From a virus (Duplodnaviria > Caudoviricetes), in the IMG/VR virus record IMGVR_UViG_3300021399_000102, positions 96,001 to 160,000 of that record: 64,000 nt of DNA; one strand, given 5' to 3'. This document shows positions 13,158 to 31,086 of this stretch, piece after piece. Each line of letters starts with the position of its first letter. The stretch's first letter is position 1. Made by a program: the position numbers and the translations under genes. The notes under the pieces are model-generated. The model saw only the letters and a list, made by a program, of their open reading frames with translations, had not been told where the DNA came from and searched no databases.

Positions 13158-13553
13158 TTATAGTTGGAATTCCGAAACCTTGGCGTCAGTGTTGGTGGAA
13201 AGCCAATCGGCAATCAAGTGCCTATGGCAAAAGTCCCCAATCTTCTCGTAGCAAAGCATTACGGCATTGTCTCCAAGTTTCTCCAACACATTGTGAGGAT
13301 TCAATTTTGACAATACGGTTTCAAGGTATATGTTCTTGTACCATTCCATAGATTCCGGAGAACTTGGATTGTCCTTGAACTTGTCGTGCCATATTCTCCA
13401 CCAGCATCTCTTTGGGGCAAGTTCTGGCATGAACCTTGCATTGGGTGTGTCATAGAAGAACTTTGGCGCATAGCCAGAAACGCACACCAGGTTGTTCAAT
13501 CCACACTCTTGGAGTTTCTTTACTCTTGCGAAATAGGATGTGTAGATGGTCAT
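13158..13553 (-). CDS. DUF488-like protein
   Basis: IYTSYFA, LAP, LCYEKxGDFCHRHLIADWL motifs. Confidence 0.8.
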   Translation of the reverse strand: MTIYTSYFARVKKLQECGLNNLVCVSGYAPKFFYDTPNARFMPELAPKRCWWRIWHDKFKDNPSSPESMEWYKNIYLETVLSKLNPHNVLEKLGDNAVMLCYEKIGDFCHRHLIADWLSTNTDAKVSEFQL

Positions 13554-14002
13554 GCCAGCATTTCCTTGAGCAGATTGGAGCAGAGTTTCTTGTCGCAATT
13601 TGATGGCAGAGACTTCATCATCAATCCAAAGTCCTTCTTCGTCAGACTTCTGCCAAGCTCCTTCTTCTTGTTCGCAATTATTTCCTTGATGATGCCCTCA
13701 AGCATGTCGTCTGGTATCGTAGGTGGAATAAACAAGGACAGGTCAGCAAGTTCATCCTTCGCTTTCTCCTCCAAGTCGGGTCTGTTGGCTGCCTTTGCCG
13801 AGGCTATGGTGTCCTCCAATTGCTTCACTGCCCTCTTTACGCAACCTATGACAACATCCTCAGTGATTTCCTTGCCCTCGTTCACAGTCTTGTTCTTGAT
13901 GTCAGAAACGACCATGCGAAGGGTGTCCCTCGTGGATGCGTTTCCTGACTTCATCGCGTTCTTGATTGTCTCTTGGATTCTCTCGTATGTCTCGCTTGCC
14001 AT
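13550..14002 (-). CDS. GatB/YqeY domain protein
   Basis: IKNAMKSG...LRMVVSDIKN...AVKQLEDTI...FGLMMK pattern. Confidence 0.8.
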   Translation of the reverse strand: MASETYERIQETIKNAMKSGNASTRDTLRMVVSDIKNKTVNEGKEITEDVVIGCVKRAVKQLEDTIASAKAANRPDLEEKAKDELADLSLFIPPTIPDDMLEGIIKEIIANKKKELGRSLTKKDFGLMMKSLPSNCDKKLCSNLLKEMLA

Positions 14003-15873: not shown

Positions 15874-16452
15874 TCACTTGTCAAATGCCCCGTAGAGCTT
15901 GAACTTCTTTGAGATAAGATGGGCTTGTTCGTCAGGAAGTGGCTTGAACCACGCCCCAACTGTGCATGTACCATCTGGATTCTCTGGCGTCAGATCGGTA
16001 AGGCACTTGTCGTTGATGTAGCCCCAATCAACCCCCTCAACAAGCCCAAGTTCCTGCACCACTGGCTCAATCTTCGTCTTCAACTGATTGAGATTCTTGC
16101 ATTCGCATATTGTCTTCGTGAAGATGTCGTTGATGTAGCCATTCCATATGTCCTTTGGGATTTCAACAGTAATGCTCACCGACTTCTTTGGAAATTGTGT
16201 CTTTACCTTGAAATATTTTTCCCCAGCCTTGAATGCTTCCTCTGCTTTCTTGCAGACTTCCGGATGCTTGTAGACAGCATACTGACCTGGACGCCACGGA
16301 TCTTCTGCCATCAAGGTGTCAAACTCGTTGTCAACGCAAGGAAACGACTTCAGCATGTTGGTGAAGTATGCTTCTGCACAGTGTCCAATCATGGCAGCAA
16401 GCTTCCCTGGCTTCAGATTCAGGTCTTTCCTGATTATGAACACTCTTCTCAT
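15874..16452 (-). CDS. Peptidyl-tRNA hydrolase, PTH2 family
   Basis: IIRKDLNLKPGKLAAMIGH, FTKTI, INDKCLTDL, TCTVG motifs. Confidence 0.8.
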   Translation of the reverse strand: MRRVFIIRKDLNLKPGKLAAMIGHCAEAYFTNMLKSFPCVDNEFDTLMAEDPWRPGQYAVYKHPEVCKKAEEAFKAGEKYFKVKTQFPKKSVSITVEIPKDIWNGYINDIFTKTICECKNLNQLKTKIEPVVQELGLVEGVDWGYINDKCLTDLTPENPDGTCTVGAWFKPLPDEQAHLISKKFKLYGAFDK

Positions 16453-17549: not shown

Positions 17550-18536
17550 TCACAAGTCGTCCTTGCCAATGCAGAGGTTGTCGTCAAATGCGCATTTACC
17601 CTCGATGAAATCCTGATATTGCTTGTGGATGAAATATATCTTCTTCTCAGGATGTTGTTCGACAACCAATCGCATCTTCTCTCTATCTGAATCTGGATAT
17701 CCACCCTTTACTTCAACATAGATGTCTCTGTCGGGGATATATAGGTCAGGAATATAGTTATGCCAATAGTCCTTGAAATACTTGATTGGAGCAGCTTTCA
17801 CCCACAATATGCCGAGCGCGTTCAATCTCAATGCCACATTCTCCTCCCAATGCCCACGCACAGAGAATTCCTTGCCCTCCAAGTTCTTTACCTTGTACCA
17901 CTTTACCTTCACATGTTCTTTATTGAGATACTGGTTCATGACTTGTTCGGCACGTTTGGCAGAGATTTTTTGGCGGGTTTCAAGGGTGTGTCTATGCTGT
18001 ACTGCGGACTTTGATATCTCTCCATTCTTGTACCTTTCAGAATATGTTCTTCCACCTTTTTTATATGCTTCATCATGCTGACTTTTTAGCGGATGTTTAT
18101 CGCAATGTGCAAGATGACCACCTAATTTTCCTGGACTTGATAACAATTCCTCACAATACGGACATCTCCACAAAGTTTCTCCATTTATTATGACTTTTTT
18201 GGCATGTTCGGCATTGTGTTCATCTTCAATATGTTTCTTTAATTCTTTTCTTGTCAATAGAACTTTACCGCACACTTTACAGGTCCAAGTGCCATACGGC
18301 GATTGCTTTGCAACTTTTCCTTCGGCTCTCAATTTGTCGAGATGTGCCTTTACCTTTGGGCTGTTGTGTTCAATCTCTTTGTTTATAGAACCAACATATG
18401 CTTCTTTACATTCCTTGGAGCAGAATCTTCCTGATCCATATGTGTGGTCATGTGGTTCTCCACAATTTTCACAAGGCTTGTCTTTGTTTGCAAGGCGTTT
18501 CTATGCCATTGCTTTACGATAGCGTTCTTTATTCAT
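17550..18536 (-). mobile_element. Putative free-standing homing endonuclease (Zn fingers plus PD-(D/E)xK domain), 328 aa with TAG read as Gln at codon 12
   Basis: CENCGEPHDHTYGSGRFCSKEC, two C2H2-like fingers, GHWEE...YIPDLY...YVEVKG. Confidence 0.7.
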
Positions 18537-18608
18537 ATTATTTTTACCTTTTTGTTGTTGAAGTCATTCGCGTGACTCCAAATGTATTTACTAATAATTA
18601 TACAAGAA

Positions 18609-18638
18609 ATCTACACTAGGCGCGAACCTAGTGTAGAT
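18609..18638. promoter_or_regulatory. Perfect 12-bp hairpin directly downstream of the tRNA
   Basis: ATCTACACTAGG-cgcgaa-CCTAGTGTAGAT; terminator or processing signal. Confidence 0.6.
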
Positions 18639-18645
18639 ATAACTG

Positions 18646-18724
18646 TGGCTGATCCATCCCCTTCACCACGAGGAACCCGGCGGGTTAGGGCCGCCTGTGC
18701 TTTTAGGTATTACACCATGGATCA
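18646..18724 (-). tRNA. Amber-decoding tRNA(CUA), probably Gln, with non-canonical D/T loops
   Basis: TGATCCA TG GTGT AATACCTAAAA GCAC A GGCGG CCCTAAC CCGCC GGGT TCCTC GTGGTGAA GGGGA TGGATCA G CCA: four stems, CTA anticodon (18688-18686), G73, encoded CCA. Confidence 0.85.
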
Positions 18725-18774
18725 ATTGAAACTGTCTCGTTTCTCATCACATTCAATTATACGAAATCTCGGCA

Positions 18775-21700
18775 TCAAGAGTCGCCCAAATCGACAGCAT
18801 CACTGTCTTGCATCATCACTGGTTGTGTCGCGTTTCCTCCTGGTGCATTCTCAATCGCCAACACGCTGCCAACGGGTATCTTGTTGACTTCCTCTATGTA
18901 CTCTTGGAGATTTCCATGCAAGCCAATTGCAGTCTCCTTGATTTCACTAAACGTCTTCTCTGAAATCTTGTCTCCTCTTATGAGTGCAAGCTTCAGTTCG
19001 CGCTCTTCCCTTGGCAAGTTTGCAATCTTGTTCTCGGCCTCTTGCTTGAGGTTCTTCACTTCGTCGCCCAATGACTTCAACTCCTTGTCCGTAACAGATC
19101 CTGGGTCGTTTATCATCTTCTCCAATATGGCTTCGTAGTTCTGCTCCTGCTTTCTGATGGCTTCCATAGCCTTTATCTTTGCGTTGGCGATAGCCAATGC
19201 TTCCTTGCGCTTTGCCTCCTCCTTGAGCTTCTTCTCGCGTTCTTCCTTTTCCTTCGCTTCTTTCTCTGCCTTGCGCTTGGCTTCCTCTGCCTCTTGCTTC
19301 CTCTTTTCCTCCTCAATCTCAGTCATCGTCTTCGGAGGTGGTTCAAGCACCTTGGTCTGAACGTCGCCAGCCTTCTTGACAATCTTGTTCCCTGAGGATT
19401 GCGCATCAAGTCTGGCTTGCTTCTCCTTCTCCAACCTGTCCCAGAATTGCTTTAGTTGCTTGAGGTAGGTGTAGTCCCCTGAGAATCTGGCCTCGAACTC
19501 GGCCTTCTGCATCAGCTTCTTGAGGTCGTTGATGGAACTTTCGAGTTGGACGTCAGACATGCTTCCAATCTTCCCCCAAATGCCCTGCCAAGACTTCAGA
19601 ATCTTGTCCTTGCCCTTGGCGTCAGGGATACCCATCTGCTCCCTGTAGGAATCAAGCTTCCACTTCTGCCAGAAATGTGCGTTGGAATAGTCTATGACCT
19701 TTATCTTCATGTTGGGGAATCGGAGATGCTTGTACATGAAGGCGAAGATTCCCTTTTGGGACATCAAGGTGTTGAGCTTGACGACACCCTTCAGCAATTT
19801 GGCGTTGGTGTCTTCGGTCTTGTATGTGATTTCGTCAGAAAGAAGTTTCTCAACTATGTTCCATTGTGGGAGTACCTTGTACTTGAGGTATTCGAGGAAC
19901 ACCTGAGCGAAGCCAGCTTGGGTTGGCTCGTCACCCATCACTTGCTTCCAATCATAGCCAGATATGCTGGCCATGTTGAAGAACCAGCTCATCAAGTCGT
20001 GGATTCTGTTCGCCTTTTCAACCTTTGTTCCCTTTGGCAATATCCCTTTTCCAATAAGGAAGTCAATCAATGGGATTGCTGCCCCGACAGTTCCCATTAT
20101 CTGACCATTGGCAAACAAGTCCAACGCGCCAGAATCAAGCCAGAAGTCACGGACGTCTCCATATGTGACTCCTGCCGCCTTTGTTCCCCTCCATTCAGCA
20201 ATCGTGGCGAGAGCTTGCGCTTTTCTCTTCTGTCTATTGGCAAACCTCTTTGTGCGTTCCCACCAACCAAGGTTCTTGCCGTCAGAGAGTTCTCCATTTA
20301 CGTCATCTTTAGCCTTGTCGTAGTCGAGGATTCTCTTTGTGTTCTGAATCCCCTTCTTTGCAGCTTGGAATCCCTTTACAGTAAGGAACGCGGCGCCAAC
20401 TGCTGCTGCCCCCACGACTCCACCAACGGCTACACCTGCAAATGCTGCCGTCTTCCATTTCTATCCTGGGCTTAAGTCATCCCATTTCTCGGAAAGCCAA
20501 CCCTGAGATTGCCCCTTCGCAGTCTCCAAGTTGTTGTCCTTGCCTTGAATCTTACCGGCTCGGAGCTTCTTTAGGAACCTTACAAATCTGTCCTTGAACA
20601 GAACATCCTCTTCCTTTTCATATCCACCAATCTTGTGGCTCACCAAAGCGCTGTTCCATTCTGTCCAATATTTTGCCAATTCCTTCGTGTCTATGGCAAG
20701 AGGCTTTCCTGACCATATTGAATACCCATCCCATCCCTTTAGATATCTGTTGTATATTTCACGTATTGCTTTCGCCCTTGCCAATTCATAGAGAATTGGA
20801 TGCACAGAAATCTTTGCCCCATCTTGCATCCATGTGAATGGCATGAATCCTATGGAATCGGCTTCGGCGTCTGCTGGCTTGCCGAAATACACGTCTGCTG
20901 TCTTGTGCAACGCCTCAAAAGGCTTCAATGGGATGATGGAGCGCAAATCAGATGCCATCACCCTATATCCCCTGTTCCATCCTGTATTTGGATCGTACAA
21001 TGGACCTTTTACGTTCTTGAAGCGTTGGGACTTCGACAACTGAAGGATATATGAATCCAATGTCCTTATCTGAGGGACAATGGCGTCTGCCAAATTCTGT
21101 CTGATCTTTTCAGCCTTCTTGTGCATCGCCTCAATCAGCTATGGAGATGCATTCCCCTGCATTCGGGCAATTTGGATGTATTTAAGTTCGTCTGTGAACT
21201 TTTGGGAGGCGTTGTGAATCGTAACAAGAAGGTCGCCAGAATTTTTGGACTTGAGCCTCTTTTCGACATCTTCCTCTGCTGCATCCTTGCTCTTGTCCAT
21301 CTTGTCCTTTTGCATTTTCTCAGCATTGGCGAAGTTCTTGTTTGTGTGGACAGGGACATGGCGCATTATGGCACCCTTCGTGGGCATCTTGCCTCCAGCT
21401 CTGCTTGACGTCTGAAGTCCCTCTATTGCGTTCAATTGACCCTTGAATGGCTTTACTCCCTTGGCATTGGAGAGCAACATCCCCTTGAATTGGGCAACCT
21501 TGCTCTTTCCACTGGCCATTTGGTCCGCAGCCATGTTCTATGCTTGCTTTTCTACTGATGCCCTCTTGCCAGACCACAACGCCATCACCTGGTTCATTAT
21601 GAACGTGAATATCGCAGGGACGAACTTGGATATGAATATCAAGGTGGAGCCAGCACCAGGGAGAAACAGATTGAGGATGAATCCAATCGCAGCAACAATC

Positions 21701-23871
21701 GCGCCAGCCGCCTTCTTCGTGTGTCCTATGATGATTGAGGCAAATATTCGTATCAGATTGTATTTGGTCGTTATCAAGTCCTTGAAGATGCCCTTCTTGC
21801 CAAAGAGCTTATTCTTCATGTCGCCAAAGAAGAACTTTAACCTGTCCCAATAGTTGGGAAGTCCAACTGTTATGAAGTTCCATATGCCAAGGCCAATGGC
21901 TTTCAACGTGTCCCATCCAGGGATTGGAATTCCGAATATGGAGAACTTAGAACCATCAGATTTTGGCATGTAGGTGGCGCACCATTTTCTGAGAGCCAAT
22001 CTGGCGAGGGTGATGAGAATGAGACCACCTATGATGGTGAATGCAATTGGGGCGATTCCACCCATGAGCAATCCAAGAAGTCCTGGTCCCTTTGGCTTCT
22101 TCTTGAGATCCTTTATGCCTTTCTTGGTTGCATCCAAGTCCTTGGATATGGTGGCTTCAGAATTGTCAATCTTCTTCATCTGCTTTTGCAGACCACCCTG
22201 AATCTTCGTGAAGTTCATCGTGAAGCCATTCTTGAACTTCTTGTTGTTCAATTGTTGTTGAACATTCTGATGCACCTTTCCAAGCGCATTGAGGACTCCA
22301 TTTTTGGTAATCTTGCTTCCACCCTCGCCATCTTCAGAAGATGGTTGTGGAGCTGGAAGTTGAGCTTTCTATGGACTTACATGTGGTACACCAGGTAGAT
22401 GTAAATATCCGCAAATTGGGCAAGGATGTTCCCCATTTTTGGACGGCTTCACATTGAGTTTCGTGTCTTTGGGCTTCTGTGGTGGTTGAAGCTTTGTCTC
22501 ACCGGCCTTCTTCGCTTCCTCTCCTGCCTTGGAAACCTTCGGAACCAATGGACTCAATTCATCCTTCGGTGGTTGTTCCTCCTTTGGATTCTTCTTTGCG
22601 TCAAGATTATCTGTGTCCTTTAGGGTTATCCTCTCCTGATCTTGCTACTTCATCTTCTGAGCAAGGTCTTGTTGAAGCTTGGACTTGTCAAATCCAACTT
22701 CGGGATTGGATATTTTAGTGTCTGCCTTCTATGTAAGGGCGTCAGATTTGTCTGTGTCTTTGTTGTACGCTTCCTCAACCTTCGCCATTGGGCGAATCAA
22801 TGGTGCGGGGATTGGGGTCTTTATCTTTCCATCAAGGATGTTCTTGGCGTATATCGTTCGGAGATATTTTTCCTTTTCCTTTGGATCTTGTATCTCCTGA
22901 AGTGCCTTTGCTTGCTCTGGGGTTATGTTTGGGATAGGAACCTTTGGCGCACCTTCCATTGCAAGAACTTTTCTCCCAAGCTCGTTCTTGGAGGTGTCTA
23001 TCGCAGAGGTTCCTTGTCCAGAAGCCTTTGGTTGTTGGGCTTCCTTCCAAGACTTCTCCTTCGCCTTGAGTTCCTCAACTGCCTTCAACTGCCCCTTTAC
23101 GCCAGCAACGAGCTTGTCCCAATTGATTTTTCTCTGCTCCTTTGCCGCGTCAGTTAGGTTCTTGTCCTCCATCAAGGTTTGGGCGAGAATGTTCTTGCTT
23201 GCATTGCCAGTTGCTTGGTTGAACTTCTCCATCAACTTGGAAAGTTCATTGAGGTGTTCGTCCTTCCATTTCGTCTCGTCTTCTGCAACTTGCCCAAGTG
23301 TCTCTGATATCTCAGTTGTTTGCTGCGAAGATTCTGCCTTCAGATTGTCCAAGTCCTCTTGCTGTCCAGCCAAGGACTTCGCATACTCCAACCTGCGTCT
23401 CTCGTATTCCCTGGAGAGATTCAACTTGACTTGCAATATTGAAGTTTGCAATTCGTCTATGAAGTCAAGCACAACCTGCATTGGGTCGCAGGTCTCTGGG
23501 TCGAGGGTCTTTGTGACAACCTTCTTGGTTGTTTCTGAGACCAATGCCTCATCCACCTTGTCTGGCTCTATTCCCTCTTGCTTGCTCTTGATTACCTCAA
23601 TGAGCTTGTCAACGGCATCCGTATCTTGGACGATTTCAAGAAAGTCGTCGTTCAAGGAACGATATACTGTACGCAACAAGGTCTCTGAATTAGCACCTTG
23701 CTTCAACAACGCCCCATTTGTGAATGCGTCGAAGAGCTTGGTCATGTTGGCATAGATTTCCTCCATGTTCTTTGTCTTGGATACGTTCTCTACGCTTCCG
23801 ACAAAGGACTTGAAGTTCTCTGTGGCCGAATTAAAGACCTTTTGGTTGTCTATTGTGCTTGATTGTGCCAT
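18775..23871 (-). CDS. Tape-measure-like virion protein, 1698 aa (6 in-frame TAG)
   Basis: Six track ORFs in one frame separated only by TAG (22729, 22645, 22369, 21538, 21139, 20461); coiled-coil and TM segments. Confidence 0.75.
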
Positions 23872-29431: not shown

Positions 29432-30295
29432 TCACAGCAGTTCCTTCAATTCCTTTGGGGACATGAACTCCTTTACAACGTCAGGGAGAACCCTTGCGAA
29501 GTTCCTGAAGTCGTAGAGATGGTTTGTGGCAGCATAGAGCAGAACCTTTCTGGGGTTTATCCTGGGGTTCATCAATTGGATGTCAAACCCAGGATCCACC
29601 ATCGTTGGGTTCTTTGCGAACCAACTATCGACAAGCCGTTTCTCTTCTGTGTAATGGATGACGACGAATTGATCAGAGTATTCGTCCTCCAACTTTGCAA
29701 GTTCTTCCTTTCCACGGCCGTTCCAAGCAATCACGTATTTCGTCTTTGGACGTTTGACCTTCCCCTCCCAACCAACGATGATTCTGCTGTCGGAGTTCTC
29801 CACCTCAGGATAGTTGAATCCATTTGACTTTACTATCTCAGCAAGTATCTCGCTTCCATCCGAATCGTCTGTTGATGGATATGACGCCTTTGGTGTCCAG
29901 TTAGCATTCAAGATCCATTCGTCAGCCAATTGTGGGTTCTCTGGCAAGGAATCGTGCATGTACAGAATGTTGCTTCCATCAACCTTGCTTGACAATGACC
30001 TTGCGAAGTCAATTGTATAGGGAAATCCATTTCTCGCCCCACAGTTGCAGATTCCAATTGACCGATATTCCTTCGCAAGTTTCAACCCAGCGTAGAAGCC
30101 CATCAAGCGCAAGGAACTGTACTCTGCATTGTGGTGATATTCAACAATGACGTTCCTCTTGGAGAAGAACATCTTGTTGAATTCATCCCAATCCACCGGG
30201 AATCCAACGTTGGGGTCGGAATCAGGAGGCATGCAATCCAGTTGCTTGCGCTTGTACTGAATCAACTTCTTGAGGTCGAACTTCTTGCCACTCAT
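29432..30295 (-). CDS. Hypothetical protein coupled to the sigma factor
   Basis: ATGA overlap. Confidence 0.6.
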   Translation of the reverse strand: MSGKKFDLKKLIQYKRKQLDCMPPDSDPNVGFPVDWDEFNKMFFSKRNVIVEYHHNAEYSSLRLMGFYAGLKLAKEYRSIGICNCGARNGFPYTIDFARSLSSKVDGSNILYMHDSLPENPQLADEWILNANWTPKASYPSTDDSDGSEILAEIVKSNGFNYPEVENSDSRIIVGWEGKVKRPKTKYVIAWNGRGKEELAKLEDEYSDQFVVIHYTEEKRLVDSWFAKNPTMVDPGFDIQLMNPRINPRKVLLYAATNHLYDFRNFARVLPDVVKEFMSPKELKELL

Positions 30296-31086
30296 TTCAC
30301 GAGTTTCCTGAGGTAACTTGCCATTGGAGAATTGCGAATCTTCTCGAACGCACTTGCCTGAAGTTGGGAGATGCGAACTTTGCTGAGGTGAAGTTCAACA
30401 GAGATGTCGGTCTGGGTCTTTCCCTTGAGAACGCCCTTCACTACCAGTATCTCCTTCTTGTTGAGAATCTTTGGAAGTTTCTTCATCATAGCCCCTACAG
30501 CATTCACCATATCCCGTTCCAACATGAGCTCGTCCTCGTTCTTGAAGTTACGACCCATGATGTAGTTCGTGTCCAAGCTGCTCTTGGAGATTACGGTTGC
30601 GATGGTGTCGTTGTCCTCTTCGCCCCCAATGGGCGCGTCTATGGAGATTACGCTCATGTTCATCTGAAACTTGTGGTTGAGGGCAGAAATCTCCTCAGCA
30701 ACAGTACCACTCTTGGCGTATGCGTTCTGATGCTGCATGATTGCCCAGCGGATTGGATTGGTAATCCAAGTGGAAATCTTGCCCTTCCTCTTGGGGTCGT
30801 ATTTCTTCAACGCCTCCACCATTCCAATCACTGCCTTCTGAAACACGTCCTCGTTCTTGTTGAACGCCATCTTGTTGACGAGCTTGAACACCAAGCCCAG
30901 GTTGTGCTTCAAGGCTTCGTTGACAAACTTGTCCTTCATTGCGTTGCTGCGCCACTTCCCGGTCTTGGTGGTGCAGGATTTCACGAATTCAGCTTCCTCT
31001 TGCGCCGTCCAAGTTGGATTGGACTTCGCAATCTCAGAATACACATCTATTACGCTTTTCACCATTTCTTGTATTTCTCCGTTCAT
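30292..31086 (-). CDS. Phage-encoded sigma-70 family RNA polymerase sigma factor
   Basis: HNLGLV, DVFQKAVIGMVEALKKYDP.R.GKISTW, SIDAPI, region-4 HTH SKVRISQLQ..A..K. Confidence 0.9.
   Translation of the reverse strand: MNGEIQEMVKSVIDVYSEIAKSNPTWTAQEEAEFVKSCTTKTGKWRSNAMKDKFVNEALKHNLGLVFKLVNKMAFNKNEDVFQKAVIGMVEALKKYDPKRKGKISTWITNPIRWAIMQHQNAYAKSGTVAEEISALNHKFQMNMSVISIDAPIGGEEDNDTIATVISKSSLDTNYIMGRNFKNEDELMLERDMVNAVGAMMKKLPKILNKKEILVVKGVLKGKTQTDISVELHLSKVRISQLQASAFEKIRNSPMASYLRKLVK

Follow-up and report, generated by a model that had tools for sequence, protein, structure and literature searches.

How a phage that reads TAG as sense supplies a tRNA for that codon is the question raised by a CUA-anticodon cloverleaf whose loops lack the conserved residues of the tRNA elbow. 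TAG-recoded phages (code 15) with an amber suppressor tRNA(CUA) are known among crAss-like, Lak, Agate, Sapphire and jumbo phages, and a suppressor was detected in just 40% and 61% of the recoded genomes; missed tRNAs were predicted there, with their structure undescribed (Borges et al., 10.1101/2021.08.26.457843; PMC13037316; PMC12386605). The stretch of DNA analysed here, hereafter the window, is 64,000 nucleotides long and is part of a linear viral contig of 201,557 nt (G000) that is 48% complete. Its relatives are complete genomes of 414-434 kb, and the source is a giant gut phage, a jumbo phage of ~420 kb of which the contig represents about half.

Recoding of TAG in the phage genome

TAG is read through in genes that the phage needs. 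Frames of 3621, 2616, 1825 and 1698 codons contain 14, 8, 12 and 6 TAG codons, respectively, and five TAG fall within the matched domain of the T4 gp15-like tail sheath stabiliser. Of the 15 informative TAG sites, 8 are aligned with Gln and, in the reverse direction, Gln is the commonest residue opposite the stops of relatives (15/49 versus a background of 3%); its enrichment is roughly tenfold or greater whichever way the comparison is made, with Glu second. TAG is most likely read as Gln by the phage, judging from these alignments. The first-pass annotation had proposed the tRNA as the decoder of a TAG-as-Gln code: the syntenic position of the gene, its status as the sole CUA tRNA of a complete relative, the read-through of TAG and the enrichment of Gln all agree with a probable decoder, but the second place of Glu (10/49) tempers the assignment to Gln.

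TAG is unevenly spread between promoter classes, with 99 in genes of the GTAAATA class (33,080 codons) versus 8 in the TATAAT class (11,635 codons), genes having been assigned crudely to the nearest motif. A phage-encoded sigma-70-like factor (30292-31086 of the window) may be what recognises one of these motifs. The complete relative G004, a recoded genome of 414 kb, contains 87 TAG in 19 frames of at least 800 codons, and an odd-type tRNA like that of the window is its only CUA tRNA in strict, loose and intron-allowing cloverleaf scans. No release factor and no Glu or Gln synthetase was found in three complete relatives; in the case of the synthetases, this means that charging must come from the host.

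Structure and authenticity of the tRNA gene

The tRNA(CUA) gene occupies 18646..18724 on the minus strand and is 79 nt long including its encoded CCA. Every element of the cloverleaf described in the first-pass annotation was found: a 7-bp acceptor stem with G73 and CCA; a 4-bp D stem with an 11-nt loop devoid of GG; a 5-bp anticodon stem around the loop CCCTAAC, with the anticodon CUA at 18686..18688 and C33 at 18689; and a 5-bp T stem with an 8-nt loop (18669-18662) devoid of TTC. Overlooked there was the additional loss of G53-C61, the T stem closing with C-G. The TATAAT placed about 30 nt upstream is located at 18756..18761 (minus strand), 31 nt from the gene, and is an element of the promoter-like motif GTATAATTG, which is conserved at this place in every relative with a tRNA in the same slot. 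The downstream hairpin is likewise present, with 13 bp followed by a T-rich run in a terminator-like arrangement (18609..18638, minus strand), and the same hairpin lies 3' of the G004 orthologue.

Over the 5' end and anticodon arm, tRNA(CUA) is identical to a canonical phage Sup-CUA at 33/40 positions, and the numbering follows from this match: G53 and U54 are retained, the T-loop GGY corresponds to positions 55-57 and the D-loop RCC to positions 18-20. In the window these motifs are ACC (18706..18708, minus strand) and GGT (18665..18667, minus strand), and in both orthologues they are GCC and GGC. The T stem is slipped by one base, leaving G53 in the loop and giving the T-loop its 8 nt, and the D-loops of odd-type amber tRNAs are 11-12 nt long. 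The gene does not conform to the canonical tRNA pattern (RF00005: G18, G19, G53-C61, U54-U55-C56, purine 57, 7-nt T-loop), and what it possesses is the CUA cloverleaf of a phage amber suppressor, with a 3' CCA and kept by compensatory change. Its predicted escape from tRNA finders was borne out, since ARAGORN finds nothing in the window and Rfam yields no tRNA match (RF00005, up to E 10); the rebuilt corner is why standard finders miss it.

A strict cloverleaf finder with free loops gave 26 matches in the 201-kb contig, consisting of 24 array tRNAs, the amber tRNA and one likely chance match, and returned 0-1 match in each of three shuffled genomes, none of them CCA-ended. The folding energy of tRNA(CUA) alone is unremarkable (z = -0.51), and in every variant the cloverleaf comes within ~1 kcal/mol of the fold of minimum energy. 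The gene recurs letter for letter in an independent sample (L236) despite 20 differences in 330 flanking bases and is therefore not an assembly error. Reads from RNA run X4 cover 18450-18486 only, outside the tRNA gene, and speak neither for nor against its expression. Searches with the exact anticodon-arm pattern in IMG/VR returned just two chance matches, the D-arm pattern gave 87 matches with no tRNA among them, and T-arm patterns fixed on the stem of the window had no match in viral, metagenome or GTDB contigs. No relative was found among cultured phages or GTDB genomes.

The CUA anticodon, G73 and the absence of G18G19 and T-psi-C are shared with tRNA-Pyl, and the gene might accordingly encode a pyrrolysine tRNA or a non-decoding tRNA mimic. 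tRNA-Pyl, however, has one linker base, a 6-bp anticodon stem, a short D-loop and a 3-nt variable loop, and needs PylRS (PMC7609411). The amber tRNA departs from it in linker, anticodon stem, D-loop and variable loop, with two bases between the acceptor and D stems, a 5-bp anticodon stem, an 11-nt D-loop and U1-A72. The identity with canonical Sup-CUA and the alignment of TAG to Gln also speak against a pyrrolysine tRNA or mimic, a very improbable reading that is already largely refuted.

Genomic position of the amber tRNA

In most relatives examined, the amber tRNA occupies one slot: the promoter-like motif, a leader hairpin and the tRNA lie directly after the gene for a 1698-aa protein (18775..23871, minus strand), which has no assigned function and 6 in-frame TAG, and whose conserved C-terminus marks the slot in all relatives. 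The 5' leader hairpin GAAAC/GTTTC (18728..18743, minus strand) stands before most slot tRNAs of any type, with a loop that varies and is GAAA or GCAA in some, and it is a possible processing signal. In one more distant group (L138, L233) the slot is without an amber tRNA. Elsewhere it holds a canonical tRNA (G002), an A18-G19 / G55-C56 type (L133, L135, L231, L277), a type with a long variable arm (L125, L136, L226, L228) or the odd type, and CUA tRNAs detectable by ARAGORN occupy it in ten relative loci. In L232/L234 and L231, remnants of the 5' half of a tRNA-Gln-type gene, left by replacement in the slot, stand directly after the big gene and ahead of the intact amber tRNA.

A free-standing endonuclease (Phage_endo_I / PD-(D/E)XK-like; 17550..18536, minus strand) follows the tRNA behind a GTAAATA motif at 18591; it has a TAG at codon 12 and is replaced or absent in relatives. 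The endonuclease genes 3' of the tRNA differ by strain (window, L126, L226, L228, L236), each with a TAG at ~codon 9-12 that makes it dependent on the suppressor with which it travels, suggesting homing-driven exchange, as for T4 SegB (PMC2330249). The divergence of the loops may thus be DNA-driven, homing endonucleases cutting conserved tRNA sequence and swapping the slot, with the new elbow a tolerated by-product. This explanation, for which the presence of at least four tRNA types in the slot also argues, is nevertheless rather unlikely given that no endonuclease lies behind either orthologue (L227, L238) and that array tRNAs have rewired elbows too. It concerns cause, not structure, and is compatible with a suppressor that carries a D/T helix.

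Further downstream lie a PTH2-type peptidyl-tRNA hydrolase (15874..16452, minus strand), which is directly after the tRNA in G004, and a free-standing YqeY-domain gene (13550..14002, minus strand). Amber gating of PTH2, reported for other phages, was rejected, as neither the PTH2 of the window nor that of G004 has an internal TAG. The idea that YqeY goes with the odd elbow was likewise rejected, since in relatives the gene is also found close to slots that hold tRNAs of other types.

Orthologues and compensatory change

Two further variants of the odd-type amber tRNA were found, L134/L227 and L238, giving three in all. The L134/L227 variant stands in tandem with an A18-G19-type amber tRNA (L134:3890-4053, and the same in L227), one of the two being detectable and the other not, and the odd tRNA is redundant there because of this second, detectable CUA tRNA. 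The L238 variant was retrieved by a T-arm pattern that left the D-loop and anticodon free, yet it carries GCC and CUA. The expectation that homologues preserve stems and anticodon was upheld, with all 24 proposed pairs formed by standard pairs in the three variants (72/72 cells) and CUA retained. Two-sided changes number seven: two in the acceptor stem, two in the anticodon stem, two in the T stem and one between the loops. The observed pairing was reached by 0/500 shuffles, a control that, as the tool warns, related sequences can beat, and slid controls gave 0-1 two-sided pairs. Covariance model R1 scores the three variants, from which it was itself built, at 103-108 bits versus at most 48 bits for canonical Sup-CUA tRNAs; with it, G000 shows this one copy alone, and G001 and G002 give no match. 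The set U1-A72, G2-C71, G10, U35 and G73, which we take to be tRNA-Gln identity elements, is invariant in the three variants.

C33, which had been put forward as one of the defining departures, is not a family feature. Both orthologues have U33, making C33 a strain trait, and it also occurs in 5 array tRNAs and 3/104 canonical Sup-CUA tRNAs. Along with G58, it is private to the strain group of the window, and the two are possibly both weakening. These private bases would fit a weak or deliberately leaky suppressor, or a copy decaying in the lineage of the window, with the real decoder in the unsequenced half of the genome; with G000 at 48% completeness, the part still missing could contain a second suppressor, and tRNA remnants in the slot of G001 and L231 indicate that copies decay there. 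Weakness or decay is nonetheless quite unlikely: the stems are all intact with compensatory changes, the gene is identical in a second sample with diverged flanks, C33 is found in otherwise normal tRNAs and the orthologue is the only CUA tRNA of the complete G004.

The proposed contact of the D-loop with the T-loop

The D-loop RCC and T-loop GGY change together, from A-U in the window to G-C in both orthologues. It had been suggested that the complementarity of ACC and GGT rebuilds the elbow contact with reversed polarity. The covariation of the motifs and the inversion of the 19-56 pair held, but a reversed-polarity copy of G18.U55 plus G19-C56 fits less well than a three-pair antiparallel helix. 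The single model that fits all three variants joins 18-57, 19-56 and 20-55, with a possible fourth pair in two variants; its three Watson-Crick pairs can form in every variant, and one of them shows a two-sided change. When the loops are shuffled, three complementary bases appear in 47-69% of cases; the ACC/GGT match of one sequence by itself is thus no more than chance would give, and the support comes from the homologues. CC and GG, being invariant, are uninformative by covariation, and the helix has one compensatory event behind it, which taken alone has an estimated chance probability of roughly 0.1-0.15. A short antiparallel D/T helix of 3 bp, with the inverted C19-G56 pair at its centre and an 8-nt T-loop around it, accounts for these sequences better than a mirrored canonical elbow and is the probable structure.

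The tRNA arrays of the clade provide a comparison. The contig has an array of more than 40 genes at 182.8-194.6 kb, in which Gln(UUG) and Gln(CUG) are present and no CUA tRNA was found. Across the arrays of four genomes (L121, L279, L280 and G004; ~100 tRNAs, including a few doubtful finder entries), tRNAs with a 7-nt T-loop combine UC at 55-56 with D-loop GG in 58/58 cases, GC with AG in 27/27, UG with GC in 4/4 and UU with GA in 3/3. Compensation this strict implies that selection for pairing acts on the loops. Elbows with C19-G56 or A18/G55 are frequent in these arrays, and the table, with C19-G56 in 4 array tRNAs, makes the inverted pair ordinary in the clade; a limited literature search found no description of natural tRNAs of either kind. 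The odd amber tRNA resembles the rewired array tRNAs of the same genomes (A18-G19/G55-C56, G18-C19/U55-G56, G18-A19/U55-U56) in its compensated 19-56 change, whereas they, unlike it, keep a 7-nt T-loop, purine 57 and the normal T-stem register.

The three rewired combinations also fit a working amber tRNA of canonical elbow geometry, with an inverted C19-G56 and a non-standard 18.55 contact, in which the extra T-loop base would be bulged and the A-U/G-C match coincidental. A G19C/C56G swap is reported to be neutral for aminoacylation (PMC3602588). The canonical elbow rules fail for the odd amber tRNA, however, since each register breaks in at least one variant: U55-G56 needs a D-loop GC, which is absent from the copy in the window, and G55-G56 needs AC, which is absent from both orthologues, and puts a pyrimidine at 57 versus the purine of all listed array tRNAs. 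Canonical geometry is therefore a fairly unlikely alternative to the inter-loop helix.

Proposed function and comparison with known suppressors

With reasonable though not high confidence, the gene is read as a working amber suppressor of Sup-CUA descent, with an elbow rebuilt as a D/T helix and a role in read-through of late-gene TAG. Sequence, stem conservation, slot synteny, the sole CUA tRNA of G004 and the read-through of TAG make this reading probable, and from them we infer expression, timing, host charging and the three-dimensional helix. The tRNA would be a descendant of the phage Sup-CUA family, which is widespread and derives from tRNA-Gln. It would be transcribed from the TATAAT-type promoter to the terminator hairpin, ahead of the GTAAATA-type late genes, and its place behind TATAAT fits such early expression. 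Processing of the 5' end would occur next to the leader hairpin. Host enzymes would then charge the tRNA with Gln through U1-A72, G2-C71, U35 and G73, which are charging determinants for GlnRS and GatCAB, and the charged tRNA would read through TAG in late structural genes. In the predicted fold, a one-base slip of the T stem would free G53 and create the 8-nt T-loop, and R18-C19-C20 would pair antiparallel with G55-G56-Y57 over 3 bp (4 bp in two variants), with the L shape kept.

By every sequence test the amber tRNA is a code-15 phage suppressor tRNA. It shares with that group the CUA anticodon, tRNA-Gln-type acceptor and D stems, a concentration of TAG in late structural genes and the absence of a phage synthetase, and its 5' end and anticodon arm are nearly the same as those of IMG/VR Sup-CUA tRNAs. 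Unlike them, it lacks G18G19, T-psi-C and G53-C61, has an 8-nt T-loop and an 11-12-nt D-loop and is missed by ARAGORN and RF00005. A further comparison is with laboratory suppressors that reportedly trace back to libraries of E. coli tRNA-Ala(CUA) in which the T-loop had 8 nt. These are active laboratory-selected suppressors with a D/T inter-loop double helix, as the title of the study has it (Kotlova 2007), and their existence indicates that such a design can translate. The likeness is drawn from that title, and those suppressors are artificial, whereas the amber tRNA occurs naturally and derives from tRNA-Gln.

Suppressor tRNAs of phages are familiar, and a build with a rebuilt D/T contact seems undescribed in nature; the probable inter-loop helix, the evidence for a sole decoder and the clade-wide covariation table are probably new. 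The change of elbow may reflect compensated drift that is neutral, or else the avoidance of homing nucleases or of host proteins that read the elbow. A bolder reading, and a doubtful one, is that this natural tRNA is essential, has a D/T double helix of 3-4 bp within an 8-nt T-loop in place of the elbow, and has been kept because it escapes host elbow readers (anti-phage tRNA nucleases, T-loop modifying enzymes) yet still passes RNase P, Gln charging, EF-Tu and the ribosome. If the inter-loop helix is real, a natural tRNA translates in a bacterial cytoplasm without the G18/G19-T-psi-C elbow, and the D/T double helix, so far from laboratory selections only, occurs in nature. The sole CUA tRNA of G004, invisible to standard finders, offers an answer to the 40-60% of recoded phage genomes in which no suppressor tRNA is found. 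Amber read-through provides a direct assay, with the three natural variants and at least three other slot tRNA types as controls, and the ~100 array tRNAs constitute a natural table of compensatory mutations for the elbow.

Other unusual tRNAs were observed in the clade and beyond. The odd tRNA has its nearest canonical kin in Sup-CUA tRNAs with a bulged T stem from other phages (L006, L063, L107). Many array T-loops lack U54/A58 (L121, L279, L280, G004), and long variable arms, unusual for the isotypes, occur in several Thr, Asn and Ile tRNAs (L279: Ile GAT, Thr and Asn; L121: Ile GAT, at G000 190809-190896). The variable arm of tRNA-Gln is normally short. In the same slot, at L136:5676-5767, L228:6227-6318, L226:5211-5303 and L125:1369-1458, are amber tRNAs whose acceptor ends are of the tRNA-Gln type but whose variable arm has ~18-22 nt, and such tRNAs also occur in unrelated phages (L011, L022, L032, L044, L057, L100).
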